Assembly (NCBI GenBank): GCA_018302685.1
Contig: JAGVZK010000021.1
Coordinates: 1-49,394, forward strand
Length of the DNA: 49,394 nucleotides
DNA from: Candidatus Woesearchaeota archaeon
Lineage (GTDB): Archaea; Nanobdellota; Nanobdellia; SCGC-AAA011-G17; GW2011-AR20
Reading direction: 5' to 3'
Positions within the stretch are counted from its first letter, which is position 1. Each line of letters begins with the position of its first letter. Of the stretch, positions 4,212 through 34,894 are shown piece by piece. The position numbers were made by a program, and so were the translations under genes. The notes under the pieces were generated by a model. The model worked only from the letters and a program-made list of their open reading frames with translations. It had not been told where the DNA came from and ran no database searches.

Positions 4212-6003
4212 ACATAATCTCAATGTCATTTCCAAATATTTTCTTCAGTTCTTCAAATAATTTTTCCTTTACAAATATTGACTTCGGCACTTTGAATTTC
4301 TTTGAGCTCTCTTCAAACTCTTTCTTGGAGCTCTCTTTGATGTTGGCCAGCTCTCCGCTCTCGCTCAATTTTGCCTTTTTAATGACTTCATCATTTATTA
4401 TGTAAACGAGATCATCAAAGACATAGACCTCGCCGACCTTGTCGCCGTGCTTCACTCTTATTCTGACTTTGTCCAGCTTGATTCCGCTTTTCCTGTGCAT
4501 AAATTCGGAAACTTCCTTTATGAAGGATCTTGCATCCCTTGCAATCTTGTCATTCTCAGCCTTGCTCAGCTTCTTGGACTTTGAATCTTTAATAAGCTTG
4601 AATAGATCATAGTACTTCTTCTGAATTTCATTCTTTCCTACTAATGATTTCAGCCCATTGTCAAGATCTCCCTTGACTTCATAGTAATTCAGAATATCCC
4701 TTGTCAGATTCATGACGTTGTCGTAGAGCTCATCAGTTCTTTCCTTATCCTTGGTCTTCTGAAGCGCGGCGAATATCTTGTTGATTACCTTCAGATAGTT
4801 CCTTGACCTGTTCAGCAGGTCATCAATCTCTTTTCCAGAAACTTCCTTGACTTTTCCGTGTTCGATTCCCTTATAGAACGCCCTTACGTCCTCTAAGGTT
4901 TTGACATCATTCAATGTGCATAATTTCAGCTTCCTGACAAATATGTCCTTCATCAGGTTAATTGTCTCAAGAGGGGTCGGAGGATTCACTCCATAGAGCA
5001 TCAGAACAGCCTGGCTTGGGTTTATGATCGCCCAGTATAAATCCTCCCCAACAACACTCAGCAGTTTGAACCTTGTTCTGGACAGCAGCTTCTCGCCAGA
5101 ATCCATCTGCATGTCAATTGCCTCTGGAGTCGGCCTTATTCTCCCCATGTTCAAAAGAAGCTTCCATGGCATGAACATTCCCCTATCATAAAGCGGAACA
5201 CCGTCCCGGATAAAAGTGAACATAACCGGATGTGCATCCTTTACAGCCTCCCAGAAATCCGTGAGTATGTAAGTCTGGACGTGAAATTGTTTTTTAACGC
5301 CGGCAATTCTCGCAGCCTCAGCACCATAGCTTAAAATAATCCCTCTTAGTCTCTCTCTCAATTCGAATCTGCTCATTCTCTTCACATCAGTGTCATCAAT
5401 TATGATATAAACGTCAATGTCAAAGCTCTTCTTGTCTCCTCTGAAGAGAGAGCCTGCTGCGATATAGCTGAAGATATACTTGTCAAATTTCTTCAGGACC
5501 ATTGTCTTGTGGATCTCAGAAACTTTTATGCCCCCAAGAAAATCAATGGGGTCATAAACAAATGAACTCAGGCTTATTAATTTCAGGTATTCATATCTTG
5601 CATCATAGCAGTCCTCCTTTATCTCAGATACCAGCCTTACTTTCAGCAGAATGTTCTTGTCAATCGCCTTTGCAGTATCCTCGCAGGATTTAGTAATCTT
5701 GTGCTTCAGCTCAAATGGATTTTTGTTGTCATAGTCATTAACCAGTATAAAGACATTTATCTTGTCCTTTTCCTCCTCGGGCATCTTCTCCCCAGGCTTG
5801 ATGCCAGAATCCATATAAGAGGAAAACCTCAGTGGGCTCACGTTTGGAAGAAGTGAAATCCCTATGACTTCCTTGTGCTTCTTGACAATCTCCTTCTTGA
5901 AGTCATCAAGCTTCTTTTGTATCTGCTTGAGCTTCTCTTCCATTTCAGGAGTTATCTGAAACTTGTCCTGATAATCGTATATGCTTTCCTTCTCTTCAGT
6001 CAT
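4201..6003 (-). CDS. Pol-beta-superfamily nucleotidyltransferase-domain protein, 600 aa
   Basis: AAGSLFRGDKKSFDIDVYIIIDDTD matches the minimal NTase motif (G-S-x9-13-D-x-D plus a downstream acidic residue). A long helical, Lys-rich C-terminal region follows. Confidence 0.6.
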   Translation of the reverse strand: MTEEKESIYDYQDKFQITPEMEEKLKQIQKKLDDFKKEIVKKHKEVIGISLLPNVSPLRFSSYMDSGIKPGEKMPEEEKDKINVFILVNDYDNKNPFELKHKITKSCEDTAKAIDKNILLKVRLVSEIKEDCYDARYEYLKLISLSSFVYDPIDFLGGIKVSEIHKTMVLKKFDKYIFSYIAAGSLFRGDKKSFDIDVYIIIDDTDVKRMSRFELRERLRGIILSYGAEAARIAGVKKQFHVQTYILTDFWEAVKDAHPVMFTFIRDGVPLYDRGMFMPWKLLLNMGRIRPTPEAIDMQMDSGEKLLSRTRFKLLSVVGEDLYWAIINPSQAVLMLYGVNPPTPLETINLMKDIFVRKLKLCTLNDVKTLEDVRAFYKGIEHGKVKEVSGKEIDDLLNRSRNYLKVINKIFAALQKTKDKERTDELYDNVMNLTRDILNYYEVKGDLDNGLKSLVGKNEIQKKYYDLFKLIKDSKSKKLSKAENDKIARDARSFIKEVSEFMHRKSGIKLDKVRIRVKHGDKVGEVYVFDDLVYIINDEVIKKAKLSESGELANIKESSKKEFEESSKKFKVPKSIFVKEKLFEELKKIFGNDIEIMFNY

Positions 6004-11309: not shown

Positions 11310-14750
<3,441 letters not shown>

Positions 14751-15012
14751 TTATTAAGTCCAAGCCTTTCATACCCTATTTTTTGTTAAAAATCTCCCCA
14801 AGATATACAATAAAAAATGCTGTTTAATATAAAAATCTTTCTCCCTCAAAACACAAAAATTTGAGCACTACAAGCCTTGTAATGGCAAAACAAAAGTTAT
14901 TTGACAGAAAGATTTATAAAGAAAATTTAGAAGTCCAAAAAACCAGAAAAGAAGGTTATTTCAACCTTAAATTAAGGCCTGAAAATCCCTGTTCTATGCC
15001 CTTTAAATTTTA

Positions 15013-15585
15013 TTAATTCTCTTCTATCACAAAATGTTTTTCACATCTTGCTTCATACTGCTCTTTTCCCCCAATGACAACCAGCTTATCATCATGATAG
15101 ACAGGCTTTCCATTAGCCAGCCTCTGCGTAAAATTAGCTTCTCTTCCGCAGATCTCGCCATTTTCCCTGTAAGTGCATATGGCAGACAAATAATAAACTT
15201 TGGACATAGCCATTAATTCCCCGACATGCCTCTCTGAATCTTTAAATTTAAATGGTTTGCCCATGAAATCAGTGTTCAATCCTGAAACAATTATCAGTTT
15301 GTTCCTGAATTTCCTGCAGAATCTAACTACCCCATCATCCAAAAACTGGACCTCGTCAATTCCTATAACATCGGCGTCATATCCGTAGAGATCGTCCGAA
15401 TTTTCAGCAGTGATGCATCTGAAGCTGACACCGTCGTGGGTCGTGACATATTCTTCGGAATATCGATTGTCGATTTTTGGCTTGAACAGGACGACTTTTT
15501 TTCCTGAAATGCTCTCCCTTCTCATTCTCCTTATCAGCTCTTCAGTTTTTCCGCAGAACATACATCCTGTGATGAATTCAATCAT
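15013..15585 (-). CDS. tdk: thymidine kinase
   Basis: 190 aa with the P-loop GCMFCGKTEEL, IGIDEVQF, and C-terminal Cys pairs (CTYRENGEICGR, ARCEKH). Confidence 0.9.
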   Translation of the reverse strand: MIEFITGCMFCGKTEELIRRMRRESISGKKVVLFKPKIDNRYSEEYVTTHDGVSFRCITAENSDDLYGYDADVIGIDEVQFLDDGVVRFCRKFRNKLIIVSGLNTDFMGKPFKFKDSERHVGELMAMSKVYYLSAICTYRENGEICGREANFTQRLANGKPVYHDDKLVVIGGKEQYEARCEKHFVIEEN

Positions 15586-15637
15586 AGATATTCAGGATGT
15601 GGGTTTATTTAAATTAATTATCAAAATAAAAAACAAC

Positions 15638-16564
15638 CTATGGAATAGTCCTATACTTTGTGTTTATCAATGTCCACTCAAATATGAGCAGGAATAAGGC
15701 AATTATTGTGAACCACAGGTCAAGCCTCTGTGTTATTTTTCTTTCCATTGAATTAGCAATTCTGCTGTATGCATCCTGCAACTGAACCTCGTCTTCCGCC
15801 CTGTAATATTCCCCAGAAGTGCTCAGCGCAATGTTCTTCAATGTGGTTTCATCCAGAACAAGCTGGGCTCCATAAAAGTCAGCTCCTTCTTCAGTTCCAA
15901 TTCCTATTGTATAGACAGTAACCTGCCTCAGGTTGATGTATTCTATCGCATCCGCAACAGGAAGCCCAACATTGCTCTGCCCGTCAGTAATAAGGATAAT
16001 CGCCTTTGCATTTTCGCTCCCCATCAGCAAATTCGCGCCGGTAACAAGAGCTTCCCCTATGTCTGTTCCGCCGGTGGAGCTTAGTTCAATGTTTCTTATC
16101 ACCTGGCCCACTTTAAATTTATCATCGGTCAATTCGGACTGCGAGTAGGCCGTGCTGGAGAATGCAACAATTCCCACCTTGTTATCCGGGCTTATCTGAT
16201 CAAGAAAATTTATTGCAGCCGTCTTGGCAGCTTGAAGCCTGCTCGGCGTGAAGTCATCAACAATCATGCTGTTGCTGTTGTCAATCACAATGACGAAATC
16301 ATAATTGCTTCCCAGGCCCTGATACGTAAATGAAACTCCGGAGATTGCAAGTATGAAAAGCAGCAGAATGCAGACTCTGGTGACAAGGAGAAAAAGGTTC
16401 TTGCTCAGCAGCTCTCCGCCAGTAATTCGCTCTATGGCTTCAAAATTGGCAAACTTGAACGCCCTTCTTTTTGTGCTTTTCAGCGTCGTGAAATGAATGA
16501 AGACAAGAATAGGCAGGCTGAACAAAAGCCATAGGTACTCTGGATTGACAAAATTTATCTCCAT
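15638..16564 (-). CDS. VWA-domain membrane protein (BatA-like)
   Basis: 308 aa with N-terminal TM helices, the VWA MIDAS motif VIVIDNSNSM, ITDGQSN, and a C-terminal TM helix. It follows DUF58 and MoxR. Confidence 0.85.
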   Translation of the reverse strand: MEINFVNPEYLWLLFSLPILVFIHFTTLKSTKRRAFKFANFEAIERITGGELLSKNLFLLVTRVCILLLFILAISGVSFTYQGLGSNYDFVIVIDNSNSMIVDDFTPSRLQAAKTAAINFLDQISPDNKVGIVAFSSTAYSQSELTDDKFKVGQVIRNIELSSTGGTDIGEALVTGANLLMGSENAKAIILITDGQSNVGLPVADAIEYINLRQVTVYTIGIGTEEGADFYGAQLVLDETTLKNIALSTSGEYYRAEDEVQLQDAYSRIANSMERKITQRLDLWFTIIALFLLIFEWTLINTKYRTIP

Positions 16565-18464: not shown

Positions 18465-21400
18465 TTACAATGCATTTTTCTTTTTAAACCTTCTCCTTCT
18501 GTAATAGTAGTAGATCGAATAAAATACGAGCATGAATGCAATGATCTCAATTATCAGTATCGTTGTTTCGTTCAGTAATTCTTTCTTGGGCTCCTGCAAC
18601 GTCAGCCCCGCCCGGTTGACAAGATCTTTGCACGAATTTATTGCAGCCTCAGTTGTCTGTATTGCCTCCTCATAATTCCCCTCCTCGTAAATTTCAATGG
18701 CCCTGTCAATTAATTCCTTTAATTCAAGGCAGATTGGATTTGCCTCCAATAATGACTGTGCAAACTCTATCTTCTGCTTTGACTGAGCTGCAATTCCCCC
18801 TTCTGAAACAAGGTTAATGATGACCTTTGCCCGATCCTCGAAATTTGGCGTTGAAACTTCAGCAAGGACATTGACATCATACTGCCCCGGCTCAACATCA
18901 TCCCCTCTTGTTATTGTCAGGACAACAGGCATTGACTGCCCTCTTGCCAATGAGGGAATATAAGTTGAGCTAAAGACAAATCCCAACCCTTCTGTTCCCG
19001 AGTCAGCGCTCAGGCGGATTCCATACAAGTCTACCCCGCCTGTGTTTCTGAGTATGATCTGCGTCGTGACCTGCTTGTCTTCTGCTACCGTTATGACTCC
19101 TGGCTCTATTATATCCAAATCATAATCGGCCTTGCTTCCCCCTCCGCCTCCTCCGCCTCCTCCAGATCCTGATACAGCTACAGGAGACGTAGTTGCCTCT
19201 GAAACCATGAATACGCTCAGGTTCACCATTGATGCCCTGATATAATTATTATCTGTGCTCAACACGGAATCCAGCAATGTCCACGAGCATGATGCCTGAG
19301 AGTTACACTTGTAAAATTTTAAGTTCTCCTCATACGTTATTGTTCCAAGGACACTTGTGTAGTTGTATGTCATATTGACGCTCTGTGTGCTGCTGTTGGC
19401 TCCATAGGACAGCCCACTACAGCTGAAGTTATATTGGTCAATTGCCCTCGTATTTGTTGGGATTGCAATGCTCTCTGACAAATCCTGATATGCGCAGGCT
19501 TTTCCATGATCTGTGCTGAGGCTTACATTTTCTACCAAAATATTTAATTTGCTGTTTGTTAATTCCAAGTCAAAGTACCCAGAAGGATTTGTGAAGCTCA
19601 CGCTGCTGTTTGATTCAAAAACAGTCTTGCTGCTGCAGATGTCATTTATTGTAAAGTTTGTTATTCCCTCTCCTGTAAAAGTGATGTTCGTATTATTTGC
19701 AACTACCAGAGATGCATTTGAAGTGACGGTTATTCCAGTTTCAGGATAATTGATATCCCTGACCTGAACGCTAAGGGTATGGCTTCCCTCTGTTTTTGGG
19801 CTGTAGCTGAAATTATGTTCATACGTAAATCCCCCAGGTATAAAATCCTCCTCATTGTTGCTAACTGGAGTAAATTGATCAACGGTCCCGTTTGGAAGAT
19901 AGACATATACATCCACAGAATCTAAGAGCACAGACAGGTCAGTGTTGACTCTCACAGTGACATTGGCCTGTTCTATATTAGACACATACGTGTAATCCGG
20001 GCAGAAATAGCTTACTGTCGGATATGTAGCTGTAAGAGTGACAGGTACAGTAATTCTGAACCTTCCAGCTTCGCTCACGTTTGCGCTTGAGCCGATGCTG
20101 CCGTTCCATCCATATGCTGTGACCGTGACATACTGGGACTGGACTGACGGAACATCATAGCTGTAATTGTATGAAGTGTAGCTTCCCTGCGAGCTGTGAT
20201 TTGTGAAGTTAAGATAGCTTGTAAATGAGGATCCCTGAAGCGTAACGCTTATATTGTTGACCCAGTTCCCGTTTCCCATCTCAGTTATATTGAAGTTGTA
20301 TGAATTTCCGATTCTCAAGACCTGATCATAGGTCGGGGCCACAATCTGCAGAGTGGAATAAACAATGCTAAAGTTGCTGTAATTGTAGCTGTTGTAATCA
20401 ACGCTGTCATTTGCCCTTATCCTCAAATAATAGTCTCCAACAGGAGGCATGCTCTCAATCGGCAGAGTGTAATTTGTATAGCTTGTGTTGAATGCGAATA
20501 TCATATACGTTGAGTTGAATTTAGTTGAATTGTAAACTTCAAGCTCATAGCTCACATTGTCCAAATCCAGATCAGTTGAATCATCCCAGTCAAATTCCGT
20601 GTAGTTGTCATTGAGCATTTTGGCGTTAATGGCTGGGAATCTCCAAACAGGGGTCAGTGGAACCCTGTTCTGGACCTTGAATTCACCCCATGAGCTGCAG
20701 TTGGAGTTTCCATTGGTGTCATTGGCGCACCATCTGTAGATTACCGATTCCTGATTCGTGAAATTGTTCCATGTTATGTTGTATGAATACACATCTGTAT
20801 CTGAATTGATGTCAAATGAATTAGATGAATTAGTGTAATTCTGGTAGCTACCCGACCAGTTTCCCTCAACCCATATTTCATGGAGGAACAAGTCAGTGAC
20901 GGTTGCATTCAATGTTACATTGCTCGTCGGATAGCTCGGCTCAGGCGTCTTGTTCACATTAACTATCAATGGAGGGCTTAGGTCAACGCTGAAAATTCTC
21001 GTCTCCGAAATATTGACATTGCTTGAATTGTCATAGACTGATATATTCCACATTGTATTCTGCTGGTCAAAGAACCCTGTGAGGTTCATGTAGGTTATTG
21101 AGTCAAGGCTATTGATTGCAATCGTCGTGCTTGAATTCAGGGTTCCATTTATTGTTATAGTTATGTTCCCTATGCTGTGAAGATCAGACACATTGAATGT
21201 GAAATTGATGCTGCTTGCTCCTACAACAGAATTGTTTACAGGGTAATTAATCAACACTGAAGGCTTGATAGTGTCCCTTACAGTCAGGTTTTCATAAGTT
21301 GTGTTCTCCCTTCCGCTGAAATCAATCGCATATGCCTTCATCGTGTAATTTCCTGTTTTTGTCAGATTTGTTGTAAACAAAGTTACATTGTTCGATGCAT

Positions 21401-22589
21401 TGTTCAGGTGAGTTCCGTCAGGATATGAGATGTTTATGACTGAATAATTCAGCGAAACATCAACTATTGTAAAGTTGACAGTTGAGTTTTCGACCCCAAA
21501 CTCTATTGGAGTCGGGAAAACAGTCAGGTTGATCTTTGGATTTTGGGTGTCAACTCCAAAAGTCCTGTTGCCTGCCAGCGTGTTGTTGTTTCCTGCAGAA
21601 TCGACGCATATTACATTCCAGTCATACCTTCCATCAGATATTCTTGATGCCGACAGGGTGTTCTGTGTCCCTGAAGTCGGAGTCAAATCCGTGGTGTTGT
21701 ATCTCCATATTCCGTCAGTCCAGTTGCCATACAAGATGCAATAATCAAGATTGACATCAGTTGGTGTGTAGATGAAATCAGCGCTCTGGTCCTGGCTCCA
21801 GTATCCATTTGCCGGGCTGTTTAACGTGACTGTCGGGCTTATTGTGTCAACAGTATATGTAAGCGCTTCTGAAGTGTTGCAATAATTAAGCTGATCACAG
21901 TAATAGACTCTCCAATAGTAGGCCGTGTCTGCTCCCAGCTGCTCCGCTCCCAAAACCTGATACTGTATAACCCCCTCCTGTGTCGTGAATGACCTGTCAA
22001 AGCTTGTAAATGCAACATCATTGTCAACCTGGACAGTGTAGTTGTCCAGTCCTGAGTAGTCCTCAGCCCCATTCCATTGGAACAGCGGCGTCCTGTTTGT
22101 TGATACCGTCTGGTTCAAGGGGGATATTAAGCTTGCATTGAAAGGATACCCTGTTTCAACATAGAAATCGGAGTCATACTCAAATGTATTGTTCAAAGTG
22201 TCGTTTACATATAAGGTGTAATTAATTTGCCCCGTTCCATAAGTTGCATTCAGGGCAGGGATTGTTATTTCCCACAATCCTCCTCCTATCTCAACCAGCC
22301 ATCCCCAGAACAGCACTGCAGCATTCTTTATTGAGTCCCAGATGTAAATCCATGCGCTTGATATCTGGCCTATTCCTGAATCTGTGAGATTGAACCTTAA
22401 TGTCAAATTTTCACCATATGTCACGGGGCTTGTATTGTTGACTATCACCTGCCCAGTCGTCCTATTTGCAGTTATGTTCTGAACGGCCACATCAGGATAT
22501 AGTGTATCAACCTGAAAATTCAGCTCACTGCTCCAGTCAGAAAGGGCATTTTCATAAACATCATCATTTGATGTGGAATTGTCAGACAT
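18465..22589 (-). CDS. giant surface-type protein (about 1374 aa) with C-terminal TM anchor
   Basis: ATG at 22589. The track start at 22595 is a TTG two codons upstream. The sequence is dense in N-x-S/T sequons and has a Gly9 linker (SGSGGGGGGGGGSK) and a CARDB-like beta domain. It ends with a helical segment, a TM helix and RRRRFKKKN. No N-terminal signal peptide. Confidence 0.85.
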   Translation of the reverse strand: MSDNSTSNDDVYENALSDWSSELNFQVDTLYPDVAVQNITANRTTGQVIVNNTSPVTYGENLTLRFNLTDSGIGQISSAWIYIWDSIKNAAVLFWGWLVEIGGGLWEITIPALNATYGTGQINYTLYVNDTLNNTFEYDSDFYVETGYPFNASLISPLNQTVSTNRTPLFQWNGAEDYSGLDNYTVQVDNDVAFTSFDRSFTTQEGVIQYQVLGAEQLGADTAYYWRVYYCDQLNYCNTSEALTYTVDTISPTVTLNSPANGYWSQDQSADFIYTPTDVNLDYCILYGNWTDGIWRYNTTDLTPTSGTQNTLSASRISDGRYDWNVICVDSAGNNNTLAGNRTFGVDTQNPKINLTVFPTPIEFGVENSTVNFTIVDVSLNYSVINISYPDGTHLNNASNNVTLFTTNLTKTGNYTMKAYAIDFSGRENTTYENLTVRDTIKPSVLINYPVNNSVVGASSINFTFNVSDLHSIGNITITINGTLNSSTTIAINSLDSITYMNLTGFFDQQNTMWNISVYDNSSNVNISETRIFSVDLSPPLIVNVNKTPEPSYPTSNVTLNATVTDLFLHEIWVEGNWSGSYQNYTNSSNSFDINSDTDVYSYNITWNNFTNQESVIYRWCANDTNGNSNCSSWGEFKVQNRVPLTPVWRFPAINAKMLNDNYTEFDWDDSTDLDLDNVSYELEVYNSTKFNSTYMIFAFNTSYTNYTLPIESMPPVGDYYLRIRANDSVDYNSYNYSNFSIVYSTLQIVAPTYDQVLRIGNSYNFNITEMGNGNWVNNISVTLQGSSFTSYLNFTNHSSQGSYTSYNYSYDVPSVQSQYVTVTAYGWNGSIGSSANVSEAGRFRITVPVTLTATYPTVSYFCPDYTYVSNIEQANVTVRVNTDLSVLLDSVDVYVYLPNGTVDQFTPVSNNEEDFIPGGFTYEHNFSYSPKTEGSHTLSVQVRDINYPETGITVTSNASLVVANNTNITFTGEGITNFTINDICSSKTVFESNSSVSFTNPSGYFDLELTNSKLNILVENVSLSTDHGKACAYQDLSESIAIPTNTRAIDQYNFSCSGLSYGANSSTQSVNMTYNYTSVLGTITYEENLKFYKCNSQASCSWTLLDSVLSTDNNYIRASMVNLSVFMVSEATTSPVAVSGSGGGGGGGGGSKADYDLDIIEPGVITVAEDKQVTTQIILRNTGGVDLYGIRLSADSGTEGLGFVFSSTYIPSLARGQSMPVVLTITRGDDVEPGQYDVNVLAEVSTPNFEDRAKVIINLVSEGGIAAQSKQKIEFAQSLLEANPICLELKELIDRAIEIYEEGNYEEAIQTTEAAINSCKDLVNRAGLTLQEPKKELLNETTILIIEIIAFMLVFYSIYYYYRRRRFKKKNAL

Positions 22590-22591
22590 TC

Positions 22592-23374
22592 TCAATTTCC
22601 ATGTGTAATTCCCCCATCATCAAAGGCGAACCTCTGGAGCTCGTACAAGCTTGCAATTTCAGAGCCTGATAATGACCTGTTGAATATTGCCACTTCATCT
22701 ATATCTAATATTGCCCCATTTGCATTCCCTAGCGCAAAACCATAGCCTTCAATGGAAGCACTTGAGCCAACAATAAAGGTGTTTACTTTGGTATAATTAA
22801 AATAATATGTAATGTTAACCCCATCATATGTTATAGCCATAAAATCCCAAAGAGTAGGACGACTGGAAGGTCCAAAGTTACTGGGGAATTGAGCTGTAGA
22901 AATCCCTCCAGAACTATTGTAAAGAGAAAAATAAGGAATCTGCCCAGATGCACCTTCGAAATTAGTCTTGATCAAACCAGTAAAAGGAGTTCCATTGTAA
23001 AATATCCAATAATAATTCAGAATTGAACTTGTCCACTTCTCAGTCTTAACCCATTGGCTTATCGTAAACTCTGTTGGGTAGGTCCCTATCAAAGAATCAA
23101 TATTTGGAAAAATAATATAATCAGATGAGCTATCAAATTGAGTAGCAACCCTGTCTATCATATGAGAATCAGTGAAGTTTCCATTGGCTTCAGTGTAAGC
23201 TCCAACAATAAGTTCCCCCCCTCCTTGATATATTGTTGCTACATGTGAAGTATTCACTTTATTTATCAAATCACTTCCATCCCACAAAAGCTTCAAACCT
23301 TCAGGATAATAGGCGGTGCTTGGGGAATTTCCAAATATAGAACTTGTATTGTACAACGTTGAATTCAAAATCAA
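22592..23374 (-). CDS. LamG/concanavalin-like lectin-domain protein, C-terminal part of a gene split by a 77-bp duplication
   Basis: 260 aa. DEVAIFNRSLSGSEIASLYE is the terminal motif of Laminin_G_3-type domains. The N-terminal 25 aa duplicate the C-terminus of the upstream ORF. Confidence 0.8.
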   Translation of the reverse strand: MILNSTLYNTSSIFGNSPSTAYYPEGLKLLWDGSDLINKVNTSHVATIYQGGGELIVGAYTEANGNFTDSHMIDRVATQFDSSSDYIIFPNIDSLIGTYPTEFTISQWVKTEKWTSSILNYYWIFYNGTPFTGLIKTNFEGASGQIPYFSLYNSSGGISTAQFPSNFGPSSRPTLWDFMAITYDGVNITYYFNYTKVNTFIVGSSASIEGYGFALGNANGAILDIDEVAIFNRSLSGSEIASLYELQRFAFDDGGITHGN

Positions 23375-23453
23375 ACTTCAGGATAATAGGCGGTGCTTGG
23401 GGAATTTCCAAATATAGAACTTGTATTGTACAACGTTGAATTCAAAATCAAAC
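23300..23453. repeat. exact tandem duplication, 2 x 77 bp
   Basis: 23300-23376 and 23377-23453 are identical base for base (checked by hand). 77 is not a multiple of 3, so the repeat breaks the reading frame of the LamG gene. Confidence 0.95.
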
Positions 23454-24660
23454 TTCCGGAATTATTATAAATATTCAGCACAGGATGCAGTATATCTCCA
23501 TCCAAGTCGCTTTGGTTGGTCCAGTTCATTCTGGTGTGATTGCTGCCTGTCCAAGTCACATTTGTCGGATATGTCAAACTGAAGTTCGCAAAGGGCTGGG
23601 TATTCAGGATTTTAACTTGATAATCCTCCTGCTTAAGAACTACATCCATAAGCACTGGAGTCAAATTTGTATTCAGGGTTTCAAATAAAGCCATGTATTG
23701 AAGATACCTGTAAGATTCTGTTAAATTCTGGATTGAATTTGAGCTTCCATTCGGGATATAATAACTTGACCATGCACTCCAATTTATTTCATTATCTGCT
23801 GCCAATCTGCTTATTCCTGATATATTTGAGGCATTCCAGGAATTTCCAACTCTTGTCTGCAGTTTGAGATTTCCCTCAATGCTTCTGTTATAAATTTCAT
23901 AAACTTCAGTTGATGTTAAAGCCCTGTCCCATATTGCAACTTCATCCAGAGCCCCTACACTATAATCAGGTCCTGTGTACTGATATGCCCCAAGGACAAA
24001 ATTATCCCTGTTATTTATATCCCCCAGCCAGCTCCCATCATTAGAACCTAATGACATAGTAAATGATTGATTTATTCCGTCTATATACAATAGATACTGT
24101 GCACCATCAGAGCCAAAAACAAAATTATGCCATTCATTATCACTATACTGCCCATCAGAACCTACTACAACCTGCCTCCATCCTGCTATTCCATTATTCC
24201 AATAAAAATTAAATTTCCCATTATTAATCCCCAAGAGCAATAGATATATATTATTTCCTGTGTCAGTATCCCCAAAAGTAACATGATACTCGGACCCACT
24301 TCCTACACTTGATTTAAACCAATATGATATCATTCCAGCTTGGTCACCGCTTCTATAATTGGATGAATTATAAACTAAATACTGGCTTCCATTGAACCAT
24401 GTTGCACTTGTATCAATCACATGAATCCCTGTTCCGTTCATATTTATTGTTCCTGCCTGAACGCCCCCAACACTCGCAAATTGGATGGAATTATTTAAGT
24501 AACTTACATTGTTAGAGCCATCCCATCCAAATACCAACCCTGAAGGATAATAGCTTAGATGAGGAATATCATACCCAAAGCCTATCTCGGAGGCATTTGG
24601 ATTAACCCCCAAGTCAAATATCATTGAAGTAAAATTCCCTTTTGAAAAGTATCCATTCAC
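23371..24660 (-). CDS. LamG/concanavalin-like lectin-domain protein, N-terminal part of the split gene
   Basis: 429 aa with a GTG start overlapping the upstream stop (GTGA). LDEVAIWDRALTSTEVYEIYN is the LamG terminal motif. No signal peptide. Confidence 0.8.
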   Translation of the reverse strand: MNGYFSKGNFTSMIFDLGVNPNASEIGFGYDIPHLSYYPSGLVFGWDGSNNVSYLNNSIQFASVGGVQAGTINMNGTGIHVIDTSATWFNGSQYLVYNSSNYRSGDQAGMISYWFKSSVGSGSEYHVTFGDTDTGNNIYLLLLGINNGKFNFYWNNGIAGWRQVVVGSDGQYSDNEWHNFVFGSDGAQYLLYIDGINQSFTMSLGSNDGSWLGDINNRDNFVLGAYQYTGPDYSVGALDEVAIWDRALTSTEVYEIYNRSIEGNLKLQTRVGNSWNASNISGISRLAADNEINWSAWSSYYIPNGSSNSIQNLTESYRYLQYMALFETLNTNLTPVLMDVVLKQEDYQVKILNTQPFANFSLTYPTNVTWTGSNHTRMNWTNQSDLDGDILHPVLNIYNNSGSLILNSTLYNTSSIFGNSPSTAYYPEV

Positions 24661-26324
24661 CTAAAGTCCCCAATAGTTGTATCTATGACATACCTGTTCG
24701 TTGAATTGTCCCCATTTATCTGGCAGTAAATCCTGTCCCCCTTCACGAAATTGCCAGATGATAGAGAGCTTGTATTGCTTCCCAAAGCAGCATCATTCTT
24801 GAACCATTCATAGCTTAAAACAGAAAGGGTTGTATTTGCATAATTGCAGTAGAGAGTGTCATTCACTCTCGCAACAGCGAACTTCTTGTAATCCAAAGTT
24901 GAAGCAGTGTCCATCCACACGGCACTTTGATTGAATTCTGGATTTGTGGTTGAGACAAATTCCAGATTGTTATAAACAGTCCCTAAGTAAACTCCATAAT
25001 TCCTCTCAGAGAAATGGTCAACTATCCATTCAACAACAAAAATGCTTACATTGTTTTCACCAAGCGAGTAATAGGAATCATAAACCCCGATGCTGGCATT
25101 GTTGTCCATATCAGAAATAGACACTGGTTCCCCCTCATAGCCATAGAGAGCAGTGTAGCCAATTACATTCTCATAATATATATCAGAGCCAAATCTGACG
25201 ATCCTTCCATTCTGGATTCCATAGTCCTCAATCGTCCTTGGGCCTTCAGTCTGGTATTCAATTTCAACTTCATTTACACTGTCCTCAATAACAAGGCTTA
25301 CATTCTCAGTAAGATTTGATTCTCCCCCAAAGACAGCAAAGCCGGTGATTCCCCCAAGCCAGTCAAATACAGAATTCCCTGTAATCAAATTTCCGCTGCC
25401 AAGATCTTTTACACTACCATCTTCAACAACCTTGACCCTGTCATTGATCTCAATTTCAGAGCCGCCTTCAATTTTGGTCACGGTAACATTGCTTGCCAAT
25501 TTTGGTATCTCGATTGTAAGATTATCCGAGCTCTGCTCCAGCCTGACAACTTTTTTCCACCTTACAGGCTGGTTTATCCTTATCGGCTCAACAAGCGTTG
25601 TATTCTCTTCGATTCCACTTGGTAATGTAACATTTTCCTGTAGTGTAACATTCTCTATCGTCTCATTCACAGCCTCAACTATGTAGTCGCTTATGTTTAT
25701 TTCAATTGGATTATCAATGCTCTCATTGATTTCAATCGTGTAGTTGCTTGCGTTTAATTCAGGAACGTCTTCCATAGAATCTTCAACAACAAGCGTATCG
25801 CCTACAATCCCTACAATTCCACCATTGTCAATCAGGCTGAGTGTAACAGAATATTCTCCAGGATCCAGCTCAAGCCCAAAATCAGAAGCCCCCGCGTTTA
25901 GCGTGTCTATATAGTATCCATCTTCATCGGCTTCAAGCCCGAACTCTGATATGCTTCTCGAATATTCATCAAGATCAACAAGTAAAATGACGGATGCATT
26001 TGAAGACACATGCTCATTGATTTCAAGGTTGATGCCATCATTCTCAAACACAACAAAGCCAGTAATTCCATAGTTGAAGTAGAAAAAAAGCCCTCCTAAG
26101 AAGAGTATTCCTATTACCAAGAGAGGAATTGCACCACTTATCTTAGGATGCTGAACAACATAATCAGAAGAAGAATAATTTGAATTTCTGAGAGCCTTTT
26201 CTTTCCTGACGGCTTCTCTCTTATCGGAGCTTAAAAAGATATTTTTTACATTGCCATCTTTCCTGTAGTTGGTATACCAGTAGTCATATGACCTGCCATT
26301 CCTCACCACTGTCTTCCTATACAA
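24657..26324 (-). CDS. signal-anchored surface protein with basic cytoplasmic N-terminal module
   Basis: 555 aa. A TTG start at 26324 is preceded by AGGTGA (6-nt spacer), and an in-frame TGA lies three codons upstream. TM helix AIPLLVIGILFLGGLFFYF. The ectodomain is acidic and rich in N-x-S/T. Confidence 0.75.
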   Translation of the reverse strand: MYRKTVVRNGRSYDYWYTNYRKDGNVKNIFLSSDKREAVRKEKALRNSNYSSSDYVVQHPKISGAIPLLVIGILFLGGLFFYFNYGITGFVVFENDGINLEINEHVSSNASVILLVDLDEYSRSISEFGLEADEDGYYIDTLNAGASDFGLELDPGEYSVTLSLIDNGGIVGIVGDTLVVEDSMEDVPELNASNYTIEINESIDNPIEINISDYIVEAVNETIENVTLQENVTLPSGIEENTTLVEPIRINQPVRWKKVVRLEQSSDNLTIEIPKLASNVTVTKIEGGSEIEINDRVKVVEDGSVKDLGSGNLITGNSVFDWLGGITGFAVFGGESNLTENVSLVIEDSVNEVEIEYQTEGPRTIEDYGIQNGRIVRFGSDIYYENVIGYTALYGYEGEPVSISDMDNNASIGVYDSYYSLGENNVSIFVVEWIVDHFSERNYGVYLGTVYNNLEFVSTTNPEFNQSAVWMDTASTLDYKKFAVARVNDTLYCNYANTTLSVLSYEWFKNDAALGSNTSSLSSGNFVKGDRIYCQINGDNSTNRYVIDTTIGDFR

Positions 26325-33784: not shown

Positions 33785-34894
33785 TTAGATGTACAGGCTG
33801 TACAGTTGGGTTATCTCCTCCTGGGTTAAAGTTCTTCTCCATATTGCAATTTCATCCGCATAGGCAATCTTGTTGGAATCCGGGCTGTTGTACATTATCT
33901 TAAAATTATAGCCTCCAATGTGCTCGCTCTCACCAGCGACATAAGTTGATTTTTTTACCCCATTCCTGAAGAAGGTGATGTTAATCCCGTCATAGGCTAT
34001 CAAAAAATGATTCCATGCCGTTGGATTGCTTGATGGTTTGTATGAATCAAGGCTTAAGGCTGGGTTCGAGCCTGAGCTATTCTGAAAAACGAAATAAGGG
34101 GTTTGTCCGCCGGAGCTCCACAGTCTTGTCCTTATAGTGCTCCCATTGTAGAATCCCCAGTAGGTGGAGGTGGTCGACGGTGTGTCATATTCAACTTTCA
34201 CCCACATAGATACTGTGAATTCATTAGGATTCGTACCTATCAATAAATCTAAGTTTGAAAACTGAATATACTCATTTGGAGATTTCATTTTGGTTCCAGT
34301 TCCTAAATACCCCTCTGCATTTCCTGCCTGGATCCCTCCTCCCAATATTCCAACGAGTCCTGAAACATAATCAATATTATTTGAGCCGTCCCATCCAAAA
34401 ACAAGCCCCTCGCCGGATAAGTGGAATTCCGTTTCACTCCGCTCAAGAACATCAAAAATGCTTCCATCCTCTTTTGTTCCAGAATAAGAGCCTTCTATGC
34501 TATGAATTAAATTTCCCTTGGAAGTGTACATTACTCTTATGTTCCCTGAAACCTTGTCATAATCAGACATATCAAGGGCGCATCCTGTAAAAGTCTCATC
34601 GCCTAGACCAGTATTGTACAAAGATCCCCCAAGATCATAGCATGACTCACCATTGATTGATATGTCTGTGATGTTGGCCTCGTCAACCAAATTCTTTGAT
34701 ATGTGGAACAGTATTCCATTATCCTTCACGATCATATCCTCTATCAAAAGCGGAGCCTGTATTTGGTAGCTGTTGGAGGTTTCATGAGAAAAAATGCCAA
34801 GGTAAAACAGAGCGCCCAAAACTATCAGGACACCTATGATAGCCCAGCCATAAGTCATCAAGAACTCCATGGCAGCCTGCCCTCTTTTTAACAT
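33785..34894 (-). CDS. type IV pilin-like protein (class III signal peptide) with a LamG lectin domain
   Basis: 369 aa. The N-terminus MLKRGQAAMEFLMTYGWAIIGVLIVLGALFYLGIF suggests a prepilin peptidase site KRG|QAAME with Glu at +5. The C-terminus ADEIAIWRRTLTQEEITQLYS is the LamG motif. Paralogous to 22592-24660. Confidence 0.8.
   Translation of the reverse strand: MLKRGQAAMEFLMTYGWAIIGVLIVLGALFYLGIFSHETSNSYQIQAPLLIEDMIVKDNGILFHISKNLVDEANITDISINGESCYDLGGSLYNTGLGDETFTGCALDMSDYDKVSGNIRVMYTSKGNLIHSIEGSYSGTKEDGSIFDVLERSETEFHLSGEGLVFGWDGSNNIDYVSGLVGILGGGIQAGNAEGYLGTGTKMKSPNEYIQFSNLDLLIGTNPNEFTVSMWVKVEYDTPSTTSTYWGFYNGSTIRTRLWSSGGQTPYFVFQNSSGSNPALSLDSYKPSSNPTAWNHFLIAYDGINITFFRNGVKKSTYVAGESEHIGGYNFKIMYNSPDSNKIAYADEIAIWRRTLTQEEITQLYSLYI

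Follow-up and report, generated by a model that had tools for sequence, protein, structure and literature searches.

An exact 77-bp tandem duplication that splits a giant archaeal surface-protein gene is most probably a local assembly error

The window analysed here, a stretch of 49,394 nucleotides, comprises all of contig C21 of the metagenome-assembled genome (MAG) G000 of a DPANN-like archaeon (473 kb in 28 contigs, 78% complete) and carries an exact tandem duplication of 77 bp that is almost certainly not a real biological feature. Judging from sequence comparisons, we consider it highly probable that the duplication is a local assembly error, in which contigs were abutted at a strain-variation break with their 77-bp overlap left unmerged. 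We favour this reading because every independent assembly carries one copy of the unit and because two contigs, L082 and L083, contain the affected gene intact, with a length of 2,616 aa. An assembly artefact had been one of three alternatives offered in an earlier note on this DNA, and it is the one that the data favour, with one copy in 11 contigs and four Logan runs and with three similar duplications of the same MAG absent elsewhere.

As deposited, positions 23300-23376 (copy 1) and 23377-23453 (copy 2), neither assigned to a strand, agree at 77/77 bases when the two halves are compared directly, and Tandem Repeats Finder reports a period of 77 with 2.2 copies in the window. The tandem duplication read from the letters by the earlier note is thus borne out base for base; an exact repeat of this kind cannot be of chance origin. 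The copy-to-copy junction between 23376 and 23377, which is absent from all other assemblies, reads ...GAATTCAAAATCAAAC followed directly by TTCAGGATAATAGG... Identity at an offset of 77 spans 81 bases (23299-23379 = 23376-23456), so that the breakpoint is ambiguous by four bases, CTTC. This microhomology occurs at 23299-23302, 23376-23379 and 23453-23456 and sits within a longer imperfect repeat of ~13 bases, TCAAAC[C]TTC[A/C]GGA, at the unit boundaries, in agreement with the weak microhomology that had been noticed around the repeat.

Two minus-strand ORFs meet at the duplication, both of them internal fragments of a giant gene: one of 429 aa (23371-24660), which holds a first LamG module (LamG1) and the first half of a fibronectin type III (FN3)-like domain, and one of 260 aa (22592-23374), which holds a second LamG module (LamG2). 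Both ORFs contain the 25 shared residues ILNSTLYNTSSIFGNSPSTAYYPE, as had been claimed, and deletion of one copy in silico reproduced the single ORF of 1992 nt (663 aa) that the claim entailed. Each has one match to Laminin_G_3 (PF13385), with E = 2.7e-16 and 60.5 bits for the 429-aa ORF and E = 1.2e-11 and 45.4 bits for the 260-aa ORF, both above the curated Pfam gathering cut-off of 27.6 bits; the family belongs to the concanavalin A-like lectin/glucanase superfamily. The description of the locus as a split double-LamG gene therefore holds in that each half carries a Laminin_G_3 module; the 663 aa, however, are only the middle of a 2,616-aa gene, which two further assembly-specific lesions also break within the window. 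The 429-aa ORF aligns collinearly with the intact protein (residues ~579-1005) and is terminated by the frameshift of the duplication, where a homologous protein (P0004) continues straight through. The apparent start of the 260-aa ORF is likewise due to the duplication, and its apparent stop to two extra G at 22611-22615.

The comparison with independent assemblies covered 11 distinct contigs (L066, L080-L083 and L085-L090; the twelfth listed locus, L084, is the same scaffold as L066) from ENA MEGAHIT k141/k127 assemblies and "ANAN16" scaffolds, representing at least nine samples. L066 was reached via the 90% cluster of a called protein (the 1,997-aa member, from an ENA assembly), L080 was a further contig of 2.2 kb, and the other nine (L081-L083, L085-L090) were found via exact matches to the MoxR protein of the downstream gene. 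The 77-bp unit is single-copy in 11/11 of these contigs, and a 50-mer across the duplication junction was found in 0/11. Metagenome runs from groundwater or sediment that contain the stretch 22900-23900 number at least 20. Logan contigs were inspected for four of them, and in each the contig across the joint passes from 23298 to 23376, omitting exactly 77 bases, with unbranched sequence of 138-396 b to one side of the joint and 499 b to the other. Single-copy contigs include ones with window-type alleles beside the joint (L088, X2) and beside the G-run described below (L089); apart from the missing copy, the contig of Logan run X2 matches the window perfectly over 138 b and 208 b on the two sides of the joint. 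Hence neither the 11 independent contigs nor the four Logan contig sets contain the duplicated form, with the qualification that contigs alone could miss minority variants. JGI metagenome contigs gave no matches, either to the protein or to a 32-mer taken from the duplicated unit, and a homologue search with the 429-aa ORF returned only that ORF itself and two distant LamG proteins.

The duplication locus is hard for every short-read assembler, and two of the independent contigs have local errors of their own. L066 (ENA ANAN16 scaffold_2044) contains a local error at 5767-5976, where 100 N stand between identical 55-bp flanks, and L080 has an unrelated head of 548 b (1-548) and lacks about 71 bp at 1174-1207.

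L082 and L083 each contain one gene of 2,616 aa, free of internal stops, of which the four window ORFs (555, 429, 260 and 1376 aa) form successive parts. The 555-aa ORF (24657-26324, minus strand), which represents the N-terminal part of the gene with an N-terminal membrane anchor, has 100% identity to the intact protein over residues 1-548, and the 1376-aa ORF (18465-22595, minus strand), the C-terminal part, is 99.6% identical to residues 1241-2616. The latter comprises Ig-like repeats, a Gly-rich linker, a C-terminal transmembrane (TM) helix and an RRRRFKKK tail, along with weak Big_7 and DUF4625 matches. The full-length protein thus combines an N-terminal TM helix at ~residues 56-78, two Laminin_G_3 modules (the family matches two stretches of it), the Ig-like repeats, the Gly-rich linker and, at its C-terminus, the TM helix and RRRRFKKK tail, with 138 N-x-S/T sequons over its whole length. 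Genes for MoxR, DUF58 and BatA/VWA proteins follow downstream. Read at the level of sequence, the locus is one gene of ~2,616 aa for a predicted membrane-anchored surface protein of a DPANN-like archaeon, very rich in N-glycosylation sequons, and the domain architecture suggests a role in cell-surface attachment.

The duplication shares this gene with two further lesions that are unique to the deposit. Between 24660 and 24661 (minus strand), 88 bp are missing that are present in 5/5 independent contigs reaching the site, and the relative G019 encodes the corresponding ~30 residues. At 22611-22615 (minus strand), a run of five G on the gene strand corresponds to a run of three in 10/10 independent contigs. 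The GTGA "stop/start overlap" of the 555-aa and 429-aa ORFs is the scar of the 88-bp loss, and the 260-aa (LamG2) ORF is separated from the 1376-aa ORF because of the 2-bp frameshift of the G5 run. What look like operon junctions in the deposit (GTGA and TGA/ATG) are two assembly-specific scars.

The duplication and the G-run lesion lie at the edges of a part of the gene that varies among strains. A hypervariable LamG2 block at 22614-23279 (minus strand) diverges by 4.7% between window and L066, as opposed to flanks that are 99.95% identical; 31 of the 36 differences between the two sequences fall inside these 666 bp. The block is bounded by the G-run lesion on one side, and the duplication lies 20 bp from the opposite edge, at which the first variant stands. 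Codon changes between the window and L066 alleles of LamG2 are mostly nonsynonymous (18, compared to three synonymous ones). Across contigs there are at least eight LamG2 alleles, 94-99.9% identical and with in-frame indels, every one of them open. The allele of the window is a mosaic of segments found in L087, L088 and L089, and as a whole it is absent from all other contigs compared. The LamG1 core (23874-24515, minus strand) exists as two population cassettes that blastn cannot align, the other cassette being present in L081-L083 and L086-L088, and the Logan contigs run into unlike sequence at 23874, the edge of this core.

The gene is probably intact in the population, with the LamG modules as its polymorphic parts, a pattern that suggests diversifying selection or recombination on putative ligand-binding modules. 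Strain-variable adhesin domains are an already known kind of phenomenon. Population heterogeneity, another alternative of the earlier note, thus applies to the hypervariable LamG modules, but not to the copy number of the 77-bp unit.

A diversity-generating retroelement (DGR) was considered as the source of the LamG2 variation and rejected, as no template was found and the variation comprises in-frame indels and all substitution types rather than being adenine-specific. Nor is the sequence of window 22400-24800 repeated elsewhere in G000, although a template could be missing from this MAG, which is 78% complete. What looks like a DGR by its sequence features does occur elsewhere in the MAG, at C14:14580-15889, where a 92-bp repeat pair has 15/16 mismatches at adenines of the copy adjacent to the reverse transcriptase (RT), which itself gives an RVT_1 match of 84 bits. 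Other contigs (C15:2436-2527, C11:128-754 and C24:20325-20600) carry two further matches to RTs and what may be a remote variable region. We also discarded the idea that a repeat had produced a chimera of LamG2 with the pilin-linked LamG gene (33794-34297): the two are only 43% identical as proteins and show no similarity at the DNA level, and the adjacency at the duplication locus is confirmed by independent contigs.

Exact tandem duplications are frequent throughout the MAG, with nine in the 473 kb of G000 vs a single one (63 bp) in the complete genome of the relative G025 (736,802 bp). Four of the nine have a period of at least 29 bp, namely the 77-bp duplication and those of 29 bp (C19:24374-24431), 39 bp (C26:17818-17895) and 43 bp (C26:15429-15514). 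In independent contigs, which were here reached via neighbouring proteins, the 29-bp unit is single-copy in 5/5, the 39-bp unit in 3/3 and the 43-bp unit in 2/2 cases, and some of these contigs have 60-b flanks that are 100% identical to G000. Two of the duplications damage recognizable features. The one of 29 bp (C19:24374) separates a lipoprotein-like signal peptide from its start codon and Shine-Dalgarno site, and the peptide is intact again once one copy is removed. In replication factor C (RFC), the one of 39 bp (C26:17818) produces a second copy of the conserved KYRPKNFEDITGQ box (KYRPK...GQ), which is single in 17/17 relatives for which the N-terminus was inspected. Independent contigs tend to stop right beside the 29-, 39- and 43-bp units (offsets of +1, +15 and -12 b), and two alleles part 2 b beyond the 29-bp unit.

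Contig ends of G000 that were left unjoined overlap as well, by 99 bp in four pairs and by 83 bp and 67 bp in others. The 83-bp overlap involves the window itself, in that positions 1-83 equal the end of contig C3 (reverse strand), and the two contigs probably join there; positions 18-114 also resemble a dispersed repeat of ~100 bp on C14, C25 and C3. The 83- or 67-bp pairs, if abutted, would look just like the 77-bp duplication. An N-run in contig C28 was inspected as a candidate "X-N-X" error and dropped, its flanks having no overlap. Side observations from the same comparisons concern inteins (Intein_splicing and LAGLIDADG matches) in gyrB (1,140 aa) and in an RFC small-subunit gene (946 aa in L067). 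The intein-bearing gyrB lies at window ~12465-15900, as judged by homology to L081 11712-15134, and RFC is on contig C26; an intein-less RFC allele of 313 aa is found in contig L069.

How might such errors arise? The LamG locus is a typical break point for short-read graph assemblers because both LamG1 and LamG2 are polymorphic, and the assembly would break at these blocks. The resulting pieces would then be placed end to end, with any true overlap or gap ignored. An unmerged overlap of 77 bp would yield the tandem duplication 20 bp from the variable block of LamG2, an 88-bp gap closed by direct abutment would yield the apparent deletion between 24660 and 24661, and a slip of two bases at the other LamG2 boundary would yield the G5 run. 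Scaffolding, or the Velvet patch-repair of aquifer studies, are candidate software steps for such joins. The position of a contig boundary or branch point is here seen by proxy, from the distance of 20 b between the 77-bp unit and the first LamG2 variant. We infer that the reads of the source sample would lack the duplication junction.

Several observations count against an assembly artefact. By our own calculation, the 4-base extension of the identity would be expected by chance in only ~1.6% of cases under a pure end-to-end join, and a CTTC microhomology within an imperfect repeat is a signature of genuine slippage duplication. The copies adjoin directly, whereas Ns separate them in the published form of the error, and the lengths of 29, 39, 43 and 77 bp fit no single k-1. 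Branch geometry at k=100 was tried as an account of the duplication lengths and abandoned, since it fits one end of the 77-bp duplication (first variant + 99 b) and fails for the 29-bp one.

Part of this evidence would also suit a genuine, recent, microhomology-mediated duplication in the strain or sample of the MAG, which would frameshift the giant gene and thereby amount to pseudogenisation or a reversible off-switch. The copies are exactly identical and the CTTC lies inside a longer imperfect direct repeat; moreover, the locus is strongly polymorphic, so strain-specific alleles do exist, and the LamG2 allele of the window is, as a whole, unmatched in other contigs. We nevertheless regard such an event as quite improbable, given one copy in 11/11 independent contigs and 4/4 Logan runs, including those with window-type alleles (L088, X2, L089). 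In addition, this one gene would have to carry two more frameshifting lesions seen nowhere else, between flanks that are 99.95% identical to intact copies, and the rest of the 473-kb genome three exact duplications that are likewise unique, including one within an essential motif of RFC. That is, six independent unique lesions would be required, all at places where other assemblers break contigs. The inactivating or phase-switching duplication suggested in the earlier note is therefore unsupported, as all independent data have one copy. A narrower form of the proposal, in which a reversible 77-bp duplication limited to the lineage of the MAG switches off the 2,616-aa host-attachment protein of a DPANN episymbiont, strikes us as similarly far-fetched; a switch of this sort would arise at the hypervariable LamG edge and stay invisible in the majority-rule contigs of other samples.

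The earlier note had also seen in the number 77 the signature of an untrimmed de Bruijn overlap at k=77, left when graph-adjacent contigs sharing k bases are concatenated; 77 is a standard SPAdes k value and the duplication is exact, but this is the least probable reading and a highly implausible one, because the contig ends of G000 share 99 bp (four pairs, fitting a maximum k of ~100), 83 or 67 bp, never 77, and the other assembly-specific duplications of 29, 39 and 43 bp show that the length is not tied to one k.

If the highly probable assembly error is accepted, these observations serve mainly to correct the public record, in which a single giant gene for a surface protein is divided among four ORFs and which also has at least three other spurious duplications, one of them in RFC. 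Because the lesions are spurious, gene calls, apparent operon junctions and inferences of pseudogenes or phase variation at these sites of the MAG would be wrong. The two cassettes of LamG1 and the mosaic of LamG2, with its mostly amino-acid-changing differences, are as expected of the partner-recognition part of an episymbiont adhesin.

Among known systems, the intact gene resembles the giant LamG/Ig-domain surface proteins of DPANN archaea encoded beside MoxR-DUF58-VWA(BatA) genes, with which it shares two Laminin_G_3 modules, Ig-like repeats and both membrane anchors. It differs in that LamG2 is nested inside the FN3-like domain and both LamG modules are polymorphic in the population. The relative G019, from a related genus, has a syntenic yet differently built locus (C34:14000-26000), in which there is no LamG2 insertion and the FN3-like domain is uninterrupted. 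The G019 locus, too, is divided into several ORFs (372, 428, 723 and 494 aa), with its breaks at other positions; these breaks may represent real differences or similar assembly damage.

With microhomology duplications and slipped-strand phase variation, the duplication has in common a short microhomology and the frameshift in an adhesin-like gene. In contrast with these, its 77-bp unit is no simple-sequence contingency tract, no second data set has the duplicated form, and it co-occurs with other assembly-specific lesions. The likeness to the contig-end overlaps of de Bruijn assemblers (k for SPAdes, k-1 for IDBA) is closer, as exact duplicates lie at contig boundaries and the ends of G000 show 99-bp overlaps, although the duplication in the window measures 77 bp rather than 99 bp and the others 29-43 bp. 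Overlaps of 99 bp fit a maxk of 100, as used with IDBA-UD. Samples from the Rifle aquifer were assembled by IDBA-UD with mink 40, maxk 100 and step 20, and "scaffolding errors" were patched by Velvet re-assemblies (Anantharaman et al. 2016; PMC5079060). The near-identical contigs bear sample labels from this study and from PRJNA268031, and we infer that the deposit may come from the same IDBA-UD/Velvet aquifer pipeline.

The closest published counterpart is the class of local assembly errors reported to be prominent in IDBA-UD scaffolds, which include joins with overlapping flanks, one duplicate of which is to be removed (Chen, Anantharaman, Shaiber, Eren and Banfield 2020, Genome Res; PMC7111523). 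The copies in the window differ from the IDBA-UD/CLC scaffold errors of that study in having no Ns between them, and the 88-bp loss and the two-base homopolymer excess are not specifically described there. The likeness is nonetheless extensive: sequence flanking the join is present twice, errors recur within the assembly, and genes are broken. The sister contig L066, with its 55-bp identical flanks around 100 N, has the textbook form of the error.
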